Shown here in pieces: positions 21,693-61,614 of a stretch of 64,000 nt of DNA. Made by a program: the position numbers and the translations under genes. This DNA comes from a virus. Every line of letters starts with the position of its first letter. The stretch's first letter is position 1. Where the stretch lies: positions 10,116 to 74,115 of the IMG/VR virus record IMGVR_UViG_3300036390_000001; one strand, written 5' to 3'. The notes under the pieces are model-generated. The model was given only the letters and a program-made list of their open reading frames with translations, did no database searches and had not been told where the DNA came from.

Positions 21693-21931
21693 ACCCCGTG
21701 ACTTTATATAAAGACGGCGCCTGCAAAAAAATTCCAGCAATTGACCATCGCGCTTGGATAAATGCAGGGTGGTCACTGACTGAAACTTCACTTACCTTCT
21801 TATCAGAAGGTGGTTCGCTAGAAGAAGGCGCCTCTATGACTGAAGGCGAGGAAGTTTTATCAGAAGAAATATCCAACCCACCTTCTGACAAGAAGGTAGA
21901 AACAAATAAGCGCAAATCCCTCAATCAATAA
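21686..21931 (+). CDS. Small head-associated hypothetical protein
   Basis: D.RAWINAGW motif; coupled to neighbours. Confidence 0.55.
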   Translation: MLDPVTLYKDGACKKIPAIDHRAWINAGWSLTETSLTFLSEGGSLEEGASMTEGEEVLSEEISNPPSDKKVETNKRKSLNQ

Positions 21932-21936
21932 TAGCT

Positions 21937-23694
21937 ATGGCAGAGCCGCTACAAAGCCCTTACAGCAAAGTCAATATTGTTGACGCTGAAGGCAATTTAG
22001 TTAACCTTGGCGGCGGCAGTGGCGATAGTGGTACTACTATTGGTGGCGCCACTGCCGCAAACCAAGTAACCCAAACTCAAGTACTCCAAAATATTGATGC
22101 CGACTTAGGCACCGACATTACTGGCGCCGTGATGCCTGCTGGTGGCGCCGGAGTTAGAGGCTGGTTGTCGGCAATTTATAATTTCTTATCATCGAGGCTT
22201 CCTGCGCTTGTTAGTGGGCGCGTACCTGTTGATGTTGCTTCGCTATCAGTAACGGTTAATAACGCGCAGTTAGAAATTGCCAATGATGCCGGCAATCCGA
22301 TTCCTGTCGATGGCTCGGTTAGTGTAAGCAATTTTCCAGCCACTCAGCCAGTAAGCGGCGCCGTCAGTATTTCTAATTTTCCAGTTACTCAGCCAGTAAG
22401 CGGTGCCGTAAGTATCTCTAATTTCCCCGTTACTCAGCCAGTAAGTGGGACAATTGCTTTTAGTAATACATCAATTGGTGTATCTTCATTGCCTGCTTTA
22501 CCCGCTGGCAATAATGCGATAGGCTCGGTTAGTATTTCTAATTTTCCAGCTACTCAACCAATAAGCGGCGCTGTCAGTATTTCTAATTTTCCAGCCACTC
22601 AACCAATAAGCGGAACCGTAGCAATAAGCAATTCTTCAATCGAAATTGCTAACGACGTGGGCAGCCCGATTCCTGTTAATGGCAGTGTAAATATTGGTAA
22701 CTTTCCTACTACCCAAGTAGTTAGTGGAACTGTCGCTATTAGTAATTCTTCAATTGAAATTGCTAATGATGTTGGCAGCCCTATTTCAATCGGCGGTGTT
22801 TACAATGTGACGTCGCCGACTTTAACCAATGGACAGGGCAGCAATATTCAGCTTAGTGTTCGCGGGAATGTATTAATTGATTGTGTTGATTATGTTAGCT
22901 CGCCAACAAACATTCAAGCCGTTGACACTAATTCCACAACATCAATAGGGCAAGATAATCAAGTAATTATTAGAGGCAATCCTAGCAATAATAGTTTTGC
23001 TTCTTATGCCTCTTCTGGTAACAGCAGCTTTGCAATATTAATTGAAAATCAACCTGCCGCAACTCCTTTTGTTGGAACACTACAAATCGAGCGTAGCTTA
23101 GACGGAAACATCTGGACTTCTATCGGCGCCTTTGTTGCTGGTTCGCGGTTTGTGCGCTCACAAATTACAGCCGAAGCAGTATTGCATGGTAATTGTTCAA
23201 GCAGCCAATTTCTAAGAGTTCGTGCTATTGCGTGGACTTCAGGAATCGCGCGAGTTACCTTTTTAGCTGGACAAGGGACAGGCACGACAACAGTTGGAAA
23301 CCCGCTGAGAATATTTGACCAAGTTAGCGGCGCCGAGCTAACGATTAAAGCGGCAAATGTATCTGCTACTTCGGCAGACCCCGCTGTTGTTGTCACTAGT
23401 AGAGATAAACCCTCAACGATTAATACTAATATTCCAAATTCTTTTCCAGTTAGCAGTACCGCCAGTGTGATTGCTTTGAATAACGACAGAAAAGGATTAA
23501 CTATTTCTAACCCCCTAGCCTTTGATATTTTCGTAGGGTTTCAATCAACCGTTTCATCCACTTCTTACGCCGTGAAAATTCCTCCTTCTGATAGCTATGG
23601 CTATTGGGAAGCGCCATACAATTACGTAGGAATTATCTCTATCGCAACCGCCACTGGCAATAGTGGAAATATTTTTGTCAGGGAGCTAATTTAA
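21937..23694 (+). CDS. Fibre-like virion protein with 14-aa tandem repeats
   Basis: VSISNFPxTQPxSG and IEIANDxGxPI repeats. Confidence 0.7.
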   Translation: MAEPLQSPYSKVNIVDAEGNLVNLGGGSGDSGTTIGGATAANQVTQTQVLQNIDADLGTDITGAVMPAGGAGVRGWLSAIYNFLSSRLPALVSGRVPVDVASLSVTVNNAQLEIANDAGNPIPVDGSVSVSNFPATQPVSGAVSISNFPVTQPVSGAVSISNFPVTQPVSGTIAFSNTSIGVSSLPALPAGNNAIGSVSISNFPATQPISGAVSISNFPATQPISGTVAISNSSIEIANDVGSPIPVNGSVNIGNFPTTQVVSGTVAISNSSIEIANDVGSPISIGGVYNVTSPTLTNGQGSNIQLSVRGNVLIDCVDYVSSPTNIQAVDTNSTTSIGQDNQVIIRGNPSNNSFASYASSGNSSFAILIENQPAATPFVGTLQIERSLDGNIWTSIGAFVAGSRFVRSQITAEAVLHGNCSSSQFLRVRAIAWTSGIARVTFLAGQGTGTTTVGNPLRIFDQVSGAELTIKAANVSATSADPAVVVTSRDKPSTINTNIPNSFPVSSTASVIALNNDRKGLTISNPLAFDIFVGFQSTVSSTSYAVKIPPSDSYGYWEAPYNYVGIISIATATGNSGNIFVRELI

Positions 23695-37800: not shown

Positions 37801-38270
37801 AAATCATCACTCTTCATCAGCCTTGGGCGCATCTCATCGCCATAGGTTACAAACACTACGAAACGCGCTCTTGGCACACCAAATATAGAGGTGCCTTGGC
37901 TATCCACTCAGCCAAGCGCCCGGTTTCACTTGAAGAGCTAGCGCGTATTTCTAATGAGAGCGCTGGAACTTTAGATTTAAATTTTCTGACAGCGCTTAAC
38001 TACGAATACGGAAAGATTGTCGTCGTTGCCGAGTTGACTGATTGTCTTGCAATGGTTGATAAGCATCATCCTGGGCGCCTTGACTCAACGATTAAAGTCT
38101 CCTCTGTTTCAGCGCTAGAAAAAGCCTGTGGAGATTGGCGCGCTGGGCGTTATGCTTGGGAGCTAAAGGATATCAAGAAGCTTGATGCGCCGATTCCTTA
38201 TAAAGGGCGCCAGGGCTTGATGAATGTTGATGGCGCCACTGCTGCATTGCTGTCAAAGTCTTGCGGGTGA
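37797..38270 (+). CDS. ASCH domain protein
   Basis: ITLHQPWAHLI..G.K.YETRSW..YRG.L.IH; KGRQGL. Confidence 0.9.
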   Translation: MKIITLHQPWAHLIAIGYKHYETRSWHTKYRGALAIHSAKRPVSLEELARISNESAGTLDLNFLTALNYEYGKIVVVAELTDCLAMVDKHHPGRLDSTIKVSSVSALEKACGDWRAGRYAWELKDIKKLDAPIPYKGRQGLMNVDGATAALLSKSCG

Positions 38271-38352
38271 AGCTTTACCCGCAGAGCTTTGACTGGAAGA
38301 AGAGTATTCCAGGCGCCTTGTATAATTCAAATTAAATTAAGGAGCAACAAAG

Positions 38353-38655
38353 ATGACTACTTATAACGTAAATTTTGACGAATCGACTTCAGTTTTAACA
38401 ATAGGCTTTGGCGAACCAGCTAATAACGACCAAATTGTTAAAGATGCCGTTGCAGGAATCAAGCAAATTAAAGAACAGTTGCATGGCGCGGTTCTTAAAG
38501 TCAATGGCGCCGCATCCCTTCCCGTTGGCTTTGCTCTTTCCGCTGAATTGGCGCACGTTGTCAAAGCAATTGCGGTGTTCGACCCAAAACTAAAGCAGTA
38601 TGTTGTGGCTGTAACTCATGACCCTAGTTACTCAATTGGCGCCTTGATTGACTAA
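38353..38655 (+). CDS. csx3: Csx3/Crn3-family protein (putative cA4 ring nuclease)
   Basis: GFGEPANNDQIVKDA..KVNG.ASLPV...LAH..IAVFDPKL..YVV..TH.P.Y..G; own TATAAT and AAGGAG. Confidence 0.8.
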   Translation: MTTYNVNFDESTSVLTIGFGEPANNDQIVKDAVAGIKQIKEQLHGAVLKVNGAASLPVGFALSAELAHVVKAIAVFDPKLKQYVVAVTHDPSYSIGALID

Positions 38656-38739
38656 GTAAAGCGCCTGTTCAGTTAGTAAAACAAATTCAAAAGGGATTGA
38701 AACCGCATTAAAATACTTTCAATCCCTTTTTAGTGAACT

Positions 38740-39087
38740 ATGGATAGCAAAATTTTTTATCGTATTGAAGAGTTAGCGCTATTGATTGAAAAATTCCGCG
38801 CGCTTGATGGCAAAGACCAAGAGTGGTTGCGCGATTTATTCAAAGGCGACCGCACGATTATCTCATGTTTAGAAATTCTTGATTTAATTGAGAATAAATC
38901 TTTGAGTTATTACGAATTAGCGAATATCATGGGATGCTCGCCGGAAACGGTTAAGCAGAAGCTCAATGCCATGATATCTGGGGGAATTGCTATAAATCAA
39001 TCGCGCAGGAAGTACAAGGCGCCGCGCGGTGGCAGACCAAGAAAGCTTTGTAATAAACCTTCGGATACGAAGGTGAGTGTTTTATAG
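38740..39087 (+). CDS. wHTH DNA-binding protein
   Basis: LSYYELANIMGCSPETVKQKL; GRPRK. Confidence 0.7.
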   Translation: MDSKIFYRIEELALLIEKFRALDGKDQEWLRDLFKGDRTIISCLEILDLIENKSLSYYELANIMGCSPETVKQKLNAMISGGIAINQSRRKYKAPRGGRPRKLCNKPSDTKVSVL

Positions 39088-54565: not shown

Positions 54566-56158
54566 TTACCACATGGCAGTGTTCTCACCCCACACGGATA
54601 CTTCAGGTTGAGCAAAGCAATAAACAACAGCATCTCCGCAATCAGGAGAGCGCCCAATCCGCTTTTTGATATCGTCTTTGGCTTCAACTTGAATATCGTT
54701 ACCGGGTGTAATTTTCCAACGCGGCGCCGTTAAATCTGCCAGCAATTCTTTATCGGGTGGTAGTGCTATATTGTCGCCATGTTCAGGGTCAAGCGCTTCT
54801 CTCAGGCGCCAGTACCATTCCGCGCGCTTGTTTCTAAAGCCGAACTTGCCGCTGCGGTCGCGCTCGTTTGAACCGTCGCCACCTGAACAGGCGTACACAT
54901 TTAAACCGCGCTCAACGCATCGGTCATAGGGTGAAGAACCAATGCCCGTTACGTCGATGCTGGCGTAAGCTTCGCCAAATAGGTTGACCGCTACCAAGTC
55001 AGCCACGGATTTACCATCAGGTGTTGACTTGCCTGCCTTTTTAATTAGCGTGTCAACATAGCGACCATAACGAGGCGCCAGTGTAGTTTTATCATTGCCT
55101 CCGCGCGCTGGGTCAACCCCCAAGGAAGTTAATGGTATTGAGGCGCCGCGCTCGTCAACTGGCTTTTGAGATGTCCAGCGCGCTTGTGCCGCTTCCACCC
55201 ACTCAGTTGGTATTAGCTGCCACGGGTCATCTTCGATACCTGCCGAGAAGTCACCTTTGAGCATTTGGCTGCGTAAAGGTTCGGGCAACGATGCCAAAAC
55301 CGACTTGTAATTGGTTTTAGCGTAGTAAGGATTGTCGTCAATCTTTGCTGGTATGAAGGTGCGACTACGCGGTTTAATCCACTCACCATTAATAAGTACT
55401 GGGTCGTCGTTTGGGACTTCGACATCTCGACCTTCGGGCGAATCGTCATCGCTAATTACAACAAACCAGCGCAATTCTCCAGGTATAGCAGGGTTGGGAT
55501 GCTTAGGGTCTAACCACGGCGCCCAATATTCAATCACCCATCTACCTTCGGCTGTCGTTGGTGGGTTGCCAGTGGCTAAAGTACGCGCGCGCTGGTTCTC
55601 GTCAGCTGTACGGTTCCACCCTGAAAGAAACTTATACTGAAACTTTGAGAAATGGCAAATTTCATCAAAAATTTTTAAGTCGTGAGCGCGTCCTTGGTAC
55701 TTCTCAACGTCCTCTTCGTATTGACAGGCGCCGAACTCTAATATTCTGCCATCATTTAGCGTCCAAGTCTTCTCGGTACTGTTATATTTACCGTGCTTTT
55801 TAATGATTTTCTTCGAGCGCTGGACTATGCCTTTAAGCTGCGGATACTCGCGCCGAAATATGATTGAATTCTGATGGGAAGTGAGCGCTAGACCAAGCGC
55901 GAGGTCGGTCTTACCCCCGTTAGTAGGGGTCTATTTAGAAGTGACAAATATGCTTAAATACAAGCAATAAAATATACCTAAAACGCCAGCAGCGCCTCCG
56001 TACAGTACTTCGTCCGAAAGCGAGGTGAATGCCATTGTTTGCGGGCCTGGTAACGGCGACCAGATGGGTTCGGACTGCGGTGGCGCTTTTTTCTTTGAAC
56101 CCATCCATTTGTCTAGTTTATTTAATGTCTTATCTATGTTCTGCAAGGACTCCAGCAT
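54566..56158 (-). CDS. terL: Terminase large subunit, interrupted: join(56158..55985, 55918..54566), 508 aa
   Basis: EVLYGGAAG|GGKTDL Walker A, LKIFDE Walker B, TGNP, GVDPARGGND and SPDCGDA nuclease motifs. Confidence 0.9.
55919..55984 (-). other. 66-nt intervening sequence in the terL Walker A motif
   Basis: In frame, contains TAG, ~29% GC, self-complementary. Confidence 0.88.
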
Positions 56159-60862: not shown

Positions 60863-61614
60863 TTAGACCATTGCCAGCGCAGGCGCCTTGCTTGATTCAT
60901 GCTCGTGCAGGCGCCTTCTCCCAAGTTCGCAATATTCTTCTTCTCTCTCGAAAGCAATAAAGTTGCGCTCATTCTTCATGCAAGCCAGCGCGGTTGTTCC
61001 TGAACCGGAGAATGGGTCTAATACCAAGGCGCCTTCGTTTGTGTAAGTTAACACCAGCCAGCTAACTAAGTCTATGGGTTTACTTGTTGGGTGTCCCATT
61101 TTACTGACAGTTGGGTAATGTAGAACGCTGCGCGGATATCTGTCGCCGCTTTGATTGATTGTTGTTACGGGCTTAACGTTGCTGTAGTGATTGCTGCGCC
61201 CACTTTTCTTTGCAGCAGTGTACTTTTTACCAGGCGCCTTTTGTGGATTATATGTACTGCCGCGCCATTTCTCGCTAAACACCAAGACGTTTTCATGCGC
61301 GCGCAGTGGGCGCTTATTTGCATCGAGGAAACCCGCAGCAATTGTCTTTTCCCAGATTAATTCATAGCGGAACCAAGCGCGGTTTGACATTATCAAATCA
61401 GTAGCGAATGGTTGAGCCGCGAACATAACTACTAAGCTTGTTGGTTGCTTGAGAATGCGCTTTGCCTGCGCCCAAAATGCCGACCAATCAACAGGTTTAT
61501 CCCACTTTAAATTAGTCGTTGCATAGGGGGGTCGGTGATGATGGCGTCTATTGATTTGTCGGGGATTTCGTTCATCAAGGCGAGCGCGTCACCCTTTACA
61601 ATTTGATTAATCAA
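60863..61614 (-). pseudogene. Beta-class N6A/N4C DNA methyltransferase, frameshifted in the DPPY codons
   Basis: GDAL..M.EIPDKSIDAIITDP(P)Y needs one more C in the C6 run at 61526-61531; HPTSKP and DPFSGSGTT intact. Confidence 0.75.

Follow-up and report, generated by a model that had tools for sequence, protein, structure and literature searches.

Csx3, also called Crn3, is specific for cyclic tetra-adenylate (cA4), the reading of the protein as an RNA deadenylase having been revised (PMC7371418). In the same study of AfCsx3, the variants H60A and D69A were dead, R71A and H80A were strongly impaired, and H57, H60 and H80 were described as 'absolutely conserved' in Csx3 (eLife 2020, PMC7371418). 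As for viral ring nucleases, a survey of 28,114 phage genomes reported AcrIII-1 (36), Csx20 (4) and Csx16 (2) and no Crn3 (PMC12409355), and in late 2025 AcrIII-2 was introduced as just the second ring nuclease from a virus (PMC12751052). A full-text literature search for Csx3 together with cyanophage or prophage returned nothing relevant, and anti-defence against type III CRISPR systems in cyanobacteria is essentially unexplored.

In this study, we analysed 64,000 nucleotides (nt) of the virus record IMGVR_UViG_3300036390_000001, hereafter the window, which corresponds to positions 10116-74115 of the phage contig C13 in an assembly of 91 contigs and 8.66 Mb. The window carries a stand-alone csx3-like gene, and its product, hereafter phage Csx3, is predicted to be a cA4 ring nuclease that counters type III signalling, a reading to which we assign a probability of roughly 0.6.

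38353..38655, + strand: csx3/crn3-like gene, ATG start, 100 amino acids (aa), predicted cA4 ring nuclease

A preliminary description, made from the sequence alone, had proposed this phage-borne Csx3 as a candidate anti-type III factor. That core reading is strengthened by the family and fold of the protein, by the completeness of the phage, and by a type III-Dv-like system and phage-matching spacers in the host.

Family, fold and lineage of phage Csx3

The window protein matched the Pfam family PF09620 (Cas_csx3) with 24.6 bits against a gathering cut-off of 21 (E 2.2e-5), and the phage gene scored 23.9 bits in the whole-genome search with the same profile. A database search gave 60 full-length homologues, several cyanobacterial ones of which are named Csx3 by NCBI PGAP or JGI; these named cellular homologues are ca. 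50% identical to phage Csx3 over the full length (E ~1e-23). When a profile built from 46 homologues was compared with the Protein Data Bank (PDB), the five best matches were all AfCsx3 chains, although weak (E 0.12), and phmmer with the single phage protein against PDB sequences found no match. A 100-aa Csx3-like gene, as first described, is present, and the resemblance goes far beyond chance.

The AlphaFold2 (AF2) model of phage Csx3 (predicted local distance difference test, pLDDT, 81) shows the CARF/STAS-like beta-alpha core of ca. 100 aa that is typical of the Csx3 fold. In a Foldseek search with this model, the top 11 matches were all AfCsx3 (E 1.2e-4 to 3.5e-4, TM score 0.54-0.63). AfCsx3 was also the best match in VIA-align, with Z 10.8 and a root-mean-square deviation of 2.1 Å over 90 of the 100 residues, followed by the cA4-binding domain of Cat1 (Z 10.1); the remaining folds scored Z 6.2 or less, and the viral SAVED structure 9r8s only Z 4.5. 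By sequence and by its modelled fold, the phage protein is a member of the Csx3/Crn3 family. It could be assigned neither to DUF1874 (AcrIII-1) nor to SAVED (AcrIII-2), in agreement with the earlier statement that AcrIII-1 is a different family.

All the motifs named in the preliminary description were found in the product, namely H68, VFDPK at residues 75-79 (V75 to K79) and TH (T88-H89). Alignment with AfCsx3 gave the following equivalents.

AfCsx3 H60: phage H68
AfCsx3 D69: phage D77
AfCsx3 R71: phage K79, a conservative R-to-K change
AfCsx3 H80: phage H89
AfCsx3 G45: phage G52
AfCsx3 H57: phage A64, the metal-site His being absent

Residues were counted over 206 distinct Csx3 family members. 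The columns equivalent to H60 and to H80 each hold His in 200 of the 206, D77 is Asp and K79 is Lys in all 206, and G52 is invariant or nearly so.

The phylogeny of phage-borne copies, proposed at the outset as a check, was examined in a Csx3 tree of 204 rows. The clade of the window protein lies inside a well-supported set of 14, which includes the IMG/VR sequence L014, P0028, P0006 and Saccharibacteria, and this set stands apart from the clade of filamentous cyanobacteria (98 rows, Nostocales cellular). Csx3 homologues are present on seven IMG/VR viral contigs and fall in three or more other parts of the tree. Of 200 genomes sampled from the family of the host, 104 encode a homologue of Csx3, none of them more than 56% identical to that of the phage. 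The GC content of csx3 (43.6%) is that of the phage (43.9%) and not that of the host (39.1%). The position in the tree, the limit of 56% identity within the family and the phage-like GC content argue for an old phage Csx3 lineage and not a recent theft from the host. The idea of a captured host off-switch accordingly survives in a distant sense, and as a recent capture it does not. A megablast search with 6 kb and a tblastn search with Csx3 against 50,697 deposited phage records gave no match.

Several features were seen around other members of the family. In many related cyanobacteria (e.g. L187, at G134:C1:5029443-5030110), a gene of ca. 305-330 aa follows the ca. 100-aa csx3 within ca. 50 nt, and the N-terminal part of its product forms another Csx3 domain of greater divergence. 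In the viral contigs L010, L011, L012 (5484-5912, minus strand) and L014 (5467-5826, minus strand), csx3 is divergent from an open reading frame (ORF) of 119-142 aa ending in a Cys/His-rich motif (CLVCN...YPYCE.HKNH), which suggests that the two form a conserved two-gene unit in those phages. P0009, a His-less relative (55% identity, JGI), is encoded on a contig of 73,986 bp, near the size of the present phage.

The phage, its host and the host CRISPR systems

The ends of C13 overlap exactly by 127 bp, indicating a circular molecule of 73,988 bp. It carries genes for a tape measure protein of 2,786 aa, Ant, a tail protein, an integrase, a DnaD-like replication protein, ERF, and portal and head proteins, and is a complete tailed phage. 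The csx3 gene is therefore virus-encoded, and it lies outside any CRISPR locus. On C13, a k-mer scan found no CRISPR arrays and profile searches found no RAMP or Cas10 matches, so that the earlier statement that the window has no cas genes or arrays extends to the entire phage contig. No integrated second copy of the phage was found elsewhere in the assembly. On the host contig C80 (107-119 kb), stretches 68-74% identical to C13 were observed, including the region of an FtsK-like ATPase (window ca. 40.2-41.4 kb); this relative, which lies directly beside a CRISPR super-locus and has no csx3, is by sequence a diverged related prophage or a remnant of one.

The co-assembled host (8.66 Mb) encodes HetR, which identifies it as a filamentous cyanobacterium, and the closest homologues of the phage ERF are from Nostocales. 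The 64-kb window has 231 copies of the palindrome GGCGCC against 13.8 expected, a 17-fold over-representation (e.g. at 38206, 38232, 38312, 38506, 38638 and 39018), and the palindrome is hyper-abundant in both genomes (3.7 per kb in the phage, 1.7 per kb in the host). HIP1 (GCGATCGC) is nearly absent from the host, with 31 copies in 8.6 Mb. GGCGCC looks like a lineage-specific hyper-abundant palindrome common to phage and host, and this common signature supports the assignment of the one to the other.

Profile searches for RAMP proteins, Cas10 and PF09620 covered the whole co-assembled genome. The RAMP matches and the only credible Cas10 all fell in one operon, which sits in trans on the host contig C80 and not on the phage contig. 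Its order is a divergent WYL regulator, a 429-aa Card1/Can2-like protein, a Cas10 of 546 aa with no HD domain, Cas7, a Csx10 fusion, a Csx7-like double Cas7, Csx19 and an 811-aa TIGR03986 RAMP protein. The Cas10 has the motif VYGGDDVTF and a palm2 domain. The gene directly upstream of cas10 (C80:86709-88001) has a Card1 endonuclease domain over the cut-off and a weak Card1 CARF match, and the best PDB relatives of its product are Can2 (8q3y, E 1.6e-22). Can2 is activated by cA4. In architecture, in having no HD domain and in its GGDD motif, the operon is like the type III-Dv system of Synechocystis, which also has no HD domain, keeps GGDD and produces cyclic oligoadenylates (cOA) that activate Csx1 (PMC11026444). 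By analogy with the Synechocystis system, the host system would be competent for cOA synthesis, with a cA4-type Can2/Card1 effector.

The search with PF09620 detected the phage gene only, and the host has no Csx3 of its own. PF09651, PF09455 and PF18145 (CARF/SAVED) were not found in the host either, in searches two of which were silent in control genomes too and so carry little weight. Additional 'palm2' matches on contigs C9 and C75 were rejected as Cas10, as they cover the C-terminal half of the domain only and lack neighbouring RAMP genes; GGDEF-type cyclases are their probable identity.

Six arrays with ca. 135 repeats are present on C80. They belong to one repeat family, each has the same conserved leader, and they surround a type I-D-like module (Cas1d, Cas4, Cas6, Cas7 and a split Cas3) and the III-Dv operon. 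The arrays are read as transcribed on the minus strand, because the leader is on the right and the degenerate repeats are on the left, with the repeat ending in GGGACTGAAAC / CGGGACTGAAAC. Three host spacers match the phage, and in all three cases GTA stands immediately 5' of the protospacer as the protospacer-adjacent motif (PAM).

61223..61254: protospacer, spacer match 32/32, GTA PAM, CRISPR RNA (crRNA) sense to the local minus-strand ORF
54972..55011: protospacer, spacer match 36/40, GTA PAM, crRNA sense to the local minus-strand ORF
21930..21960, + strand: protospacer of the spacer at C80:97779-97817, GTA PAM, 29 of the first 31 crRNA nt pair

We take GTA to be the GTN PAM of type I-D. 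Being sense, the crRNAs of the first two protospacers suit a DNA-targeting role with the neighbouring type I-D-like system and not an RNA-sensing type III system. In the third case, the crRNA runs antisense to the beginning of a + strand gene of 585 aa (21937..23694), and the flank of the target shows no complementarity to the crRNA handle, as expected for non-self. As judged from the sequence, this antisense pairing with a non-self flank is what type III firing requires. Because III-Dv crRNAs are trimmed to 37 nt (PMC11026444), the paired portion of this spacer is what counts.

The circular phage contig persists despite the 32/32 and 36/40 spacers (host C80:54316-56123). This points either to an inactive type I-D-like system or to a phage that blocks type I interference too. 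In that system, cas3 is divided between two ORFs, of 212 and 683 aa, with 85 nt between them. The super-locus itself (C80:54-107 kb; L008, L179 and L180) also interleaves two large histidine kinases. Elsewhere in the host (C73:48953-49500), there is an eight-repeat array with the repeat GTTTCAATGCCCCTTCAAGCTTTGGGCGGGTTGAAAG, which we take to resemble the repeats of cyanobacterial arrays associated with Cas12k (type V-K) transposons.

The complete phage, the single III-Dv locus of the host with its Can2-like effector, the spacers and the absence of a competing host Csx3 are all found in one assembly, which makes this an unusually testable case.

Proposed action of phage Csx3 and alternative readings

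Our proposal for the action of phage Csx3 is modelled on AfCsx3. The phage would express a small dimeric phosphodiesterase of the Csx3/Crn3 type from its recombination (early-type) block. Pairing of a phage transcript with a crRNA-loaded III-Dv complex of the host would prompt Cas10, through its GGDD palm, to make cOA, and cA4 would activate the CARF nuclease of Can2/Card1 type whose gene immediately precedes cas10. Csx3 dimers would then sandwich cA4 between the 'D face' of one dimer (D77, K79 and G52) and the 'H face' of the next (H68, H89 and possibly E65, standing in for the absent His), and would cleave it with Mn2+ to linear A2-P. The effector would stay off, and the phage could replicate, or persist as an episome, despite the matching spacers. 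In this proposal, the binding and cleavage of cA4, the timing of expression and the effect on immunity are predictions, and the mechanism is carried over from AfCsx3.

Several findings weigh against this proposal. The PF09620 alignment spans residues 66-99 only, the C-terminal third of the protein (model positions 44-77), and the NCBIfam equivalog model TIGR02579 gave 18.8 bits, far under its cut-off of 55.4. The comparison with Csx3 profiles, suggested as a check in the preliminary description, was thus positive for PF09620 and negative for TIGR02579, and by the latter model phage Csx3 is a divergent subfamily member and not an equivalog. Its identity with AfCsx3 is ca. 17%. The column equivalent to H57 holds His in 192 of the 206 family members, and phage Csx3 has Ala there. 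Within its clade (the phage protein, P0002-P0005 and P0009), the first His is always replaced by A or S, followed by E or Q, and P0005 and P0009 have lost all three His, for which reason the clade may be drifting away from catalysis. The position of R71 is Lys across the entire subfamily, and we know of no assayed member of this subfamily. On the host side, the two best spacers give sense crRNAs, and the link between phage and host comes from a single assembly of an 'algae metagenome' run. Among public sequencing runs, the stretch was found in one DNA run, probably that of the source sample, and in no RNA run. Finally, whether natively expressed AcrIII-1 truly acts as an anti-CRISPR is the subject of a published dispute (cited in PMC12751052).

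Given the missing equivalent of H57 and the existence of His-less relatives, a weakened enzyme or a sponge must be taken seriously. In the latter case, phage Csx3 would bind cA4, cleave it poorly and act mainly by sequestering it in head-to-tail filaments. The equivalent of H57 is lost across the clade, P0005 and P0009 are without three His, and the IMG/VR viral group L010-L012 is without two of the three, while the cA4-binding D face, D77, K79 and G52 included, is invariant despite the loss of His. Furthermore, AfCsx3 H60A still binds cA4 and forms extended fibres (PMC7371418). However, phage Csx3 keeps H68 and H89, the His residues whose loss matters most in AfCsx3, and the lost His ligand could be replaced by E65, which stands three residues ahead of H68. 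The large amounts of cOA made by type III systems are also regarded as unfavourable to sponges (PMC13148439). We consider it unlikely that phage Csx3 works mainly as a sponge. It is similarly doubtful, though conceivable, that in phage lineages of Csx3 a ring nuclease is becoming a protein that sequesters cA4 in filaments, with the window protein as an intermediate of weakened turnover. If this were true, a filament-forming phage Csx3 would be the first anti-type III CRISPR protein of the sponge type, and the graded loss of catalytic His in phage clades would in any case offer a natural series for the question of how a nuclease may evolve into a sponge.

Phage Csx3 could also serve the lysogen. 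An episomal prophage would supply a ring nuclease to a III-Dv/Can2 system that lacks one, damping autoimmunity caused by leaky prophage transcripts and stabilising its own carriage instead of aiding lytic growth. Such an off switch would fit a host in which the PF09620 search found no other Csx3, a phage with an integrase and Ant, a circular contig that persists alongside matching host spacers, and an antisense-compatible spacer that targets a tail-region (late) gene. Mechanistically, however, the enzyme activity would be the same as in the anti-CRISPR proposal and only the timing of its importance would differ, and the search of the host for other ring-nuclease families was not exhaustive. 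We regard a role of this kind as having a low probability.

Equally improbable in our view is that phage Csx3 acts on another cyclic nucleotide or on RNA 3' ends, in line with the first proposal for AfCsx3, or is a passenger with no current function. There are no cas neighbours, many Csx3 relatives occur in bacteria of the candidate phyla radiation (CPR) and in varied contexts, and the score with the TIGR02579 equivalog model was insufficient. Against this stand the cA4 specificity of Csx3 and the revision of its reading as a deadenylase (PMC7371418), and the presence of a cA4-type effector in the host. In addition, the members of the window's clade are 68-85% identical over their full length with invariant binding-face residues, which argues for selection.

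Flanking features and comparison with known systems

The csx3 gene is preceded, in the same orientation, by the genes for the ERF recombinase and an ASCH-domain protein. It is followed by a gene for a helix-turn-helix (HTH)-like protein, and downstream of this pair the gene order converges with minus-strand genes.

38321..38326, + strand: perfect TATAAT, -10-like, 5' of csx3, read from the sequence
38339..38344, + strand: AAGGAG, Shine-Dalgarno-like, 8 nt before the csx3 ATG, likewise read from the sequence
38689..38730, + strand: hairpin with a perfect 14-bp stem and a 14-nt loop, then a U-run
38690..38703, + strand: 14-nt block AAAGGGATTGAAAC, unique in the window, lies 35 nt past the stop of csx3 and makes up the hairpin's left arm
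38740..39087, + strand: HTH-like gene, 115 aa, basic AT-hook-like tail (RGGRPRK)

The -10 element and ribosome-binding site first reported for csx3 are both present, though without a properly spaced -35. A sigma-70 scan found no canonical -35 at 16-18 nt from TATAAT, which is why the scan did not list it, and TTGACT sits 26 nt upstream. Between TTGACT and TATAAT, at 38294-38313, there is a 6-bp palindrome, CTGGAA-N8-TTCCAG, which is a possible operator.

The terminator-like hairpin noted earlier after csx3 was recovered with its stem and U-run, and the 90-nt region around it has a folding energy of -18.6 kcal/mol (z = -2.3). A generic terminator scan missed this hairpin because its loop limit is 8 nt. 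A weak promoter-like site, TTCAAA-17-TAAAAT, was found by a promoter scan at 38686-38714 and overlaps the hairpin. The hairpin may therefore be either a terminator-like structure or an inverted-repeat operator over the promoter-like site of the HTH-like gene.

A BLAST comparison of the host arrays with the phage showed that AAAGGGATTGAAAC equals the 3' end, i.e. a stem half and an 8-nt handle, of four host CRISPR repeat families. Taken as a full 37-mer, the site matches the host repeats at 22-23 of 37 positions, which is equal to the best chance site in shuffled genomes, and an exact match of at least 14 nt somewhere in the phage occurred in 37 of 200 shuffles (18.5%). A solitary CRISPR repeat unit was rejected for this site, since over 37 nt the similarity is no better than chance and the 5' half of the repeat stem is missing. 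The resemblance of the hairpin arm to CRISPR repeats may be notable for its position beside csx3 only. It is highly improbable that the CRISPR-repeat-derived end of this transcript 3' hairpin (GGGAUUGAAAC) makes csx3 part of a two-part device as an RNA anti-CRISPR or a Cas6 decoy: the exact 14-nt match 35 nt past the csx3 stop speaks for it, but the full 37-mer does no better than the shuffles, an exact match of this length arises in 18.5% of them, the repeat stem lacks its CCC half, another 14-bp hairpin ties up the block, and the phage-targeting arrays use another handle, ACUGAAAC.

For the HTH-like protein, 16 Pfam and nine NCBIfam matches of HTH type converge on residues ca. 44-85, all of them below the cut-offs, and the best is HTH_Mga (E 3.4e-4). 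Its AF2 model has five helices and no strands at a pLDDT of 46, which is unreliable. The convergent matches would fit the HTH gene of the preliminary description, but 'winged', the type given there, finds no support in this model. Homologues form only three clusters (81-82% identity). One of them, P0064, and the Csx3 relative P0002 are on contigs of the same size (18,599), and the link between them rests on that match; none of the three clusters matched the contigs of the Csx3 relatives P0003 and P0004. An invariant, AT-hook-like stretch, APRGGRPRKL, is encoded at 39019-39045 (residues ca. 94-102).

The preliminary description had also seen in this gene a possible regulator like the anti-CRISPR-associated (Aca) proteins. 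Its adjacency to csx3 and the relative with contigs of equal size are consistent with this, whereas no HTH family was matched over its cut-off, and an Aca role may be assigned to the gene only tentatively. As in Aca repressor loci, a small HTH-like gene lies directly downstream of a candidate anti-CRISPR gene, with a perfect inverted repeat between them. Unlike in such loci, the hairpin separates the two genes, the inverted repeat lies outside the csx3 promoter, the association is seen in one relative only, and the curated HTH families are all below cut-off. The locus likewise recalls RNA anti-CRISPRs (Racr) and solitary repeat units in having a host-repeat-like 3' end, GGGATTGAAAC, beside an anti-CRISPR candidate, and differs from them in that only 14 contiguous nt match, the full-length site is at chance and its own stem is missing.

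The closest characterised relative of phage Csx3 is AfCsx3 (AF_1864; PDB 3WZG, 3WZH, 3WZI, 6VJG and 6YUD), a Mn2+-dependent cA4 ring nuclease with the same size, fold and stand-alone form. In contrast to AfCsx3, the phage protein is distant in sequence, has Ala for H57 and Lys for R71, is encoded by a phage and does not lie beside cas genes. The cellular Csx3 proteins of cyanobacteria (e.g. Trichormus variabilis, Anabaena cylindrica and Nodularia) are 47-56% identical over all 100 residues and have the motifs NDQIVKD, NGxxSxPV, FDPK and (T/S)H in common with it. They differ in having HxxxH where the phage clade has (A/S)ExxH, in belonging to a separate clade of the tree and, in many genomes, in being followed directly by a Csx3-domain paralogue of ca. 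310 aa.

AcrIII-1 (DUF1874) and AcrIII-2 (viral SAVED) have folds unrelated to Csx3, and AcrIII-1 is metal-independent. Phage Csx3 is predicted to resemble both as a small virus-encoded remover of cA4, and AcrIII-2 in particular as a defence-derived domain used by a virus, in which cA4 is sandwiched between subunits as predicted for Csx3 (PMC12751052). If phage-borne Csx3 is an anti-CRISPR, it would represent a third family of viral ring-nuclease anti-CRISPRs, one derived from the cell's own off-switch.

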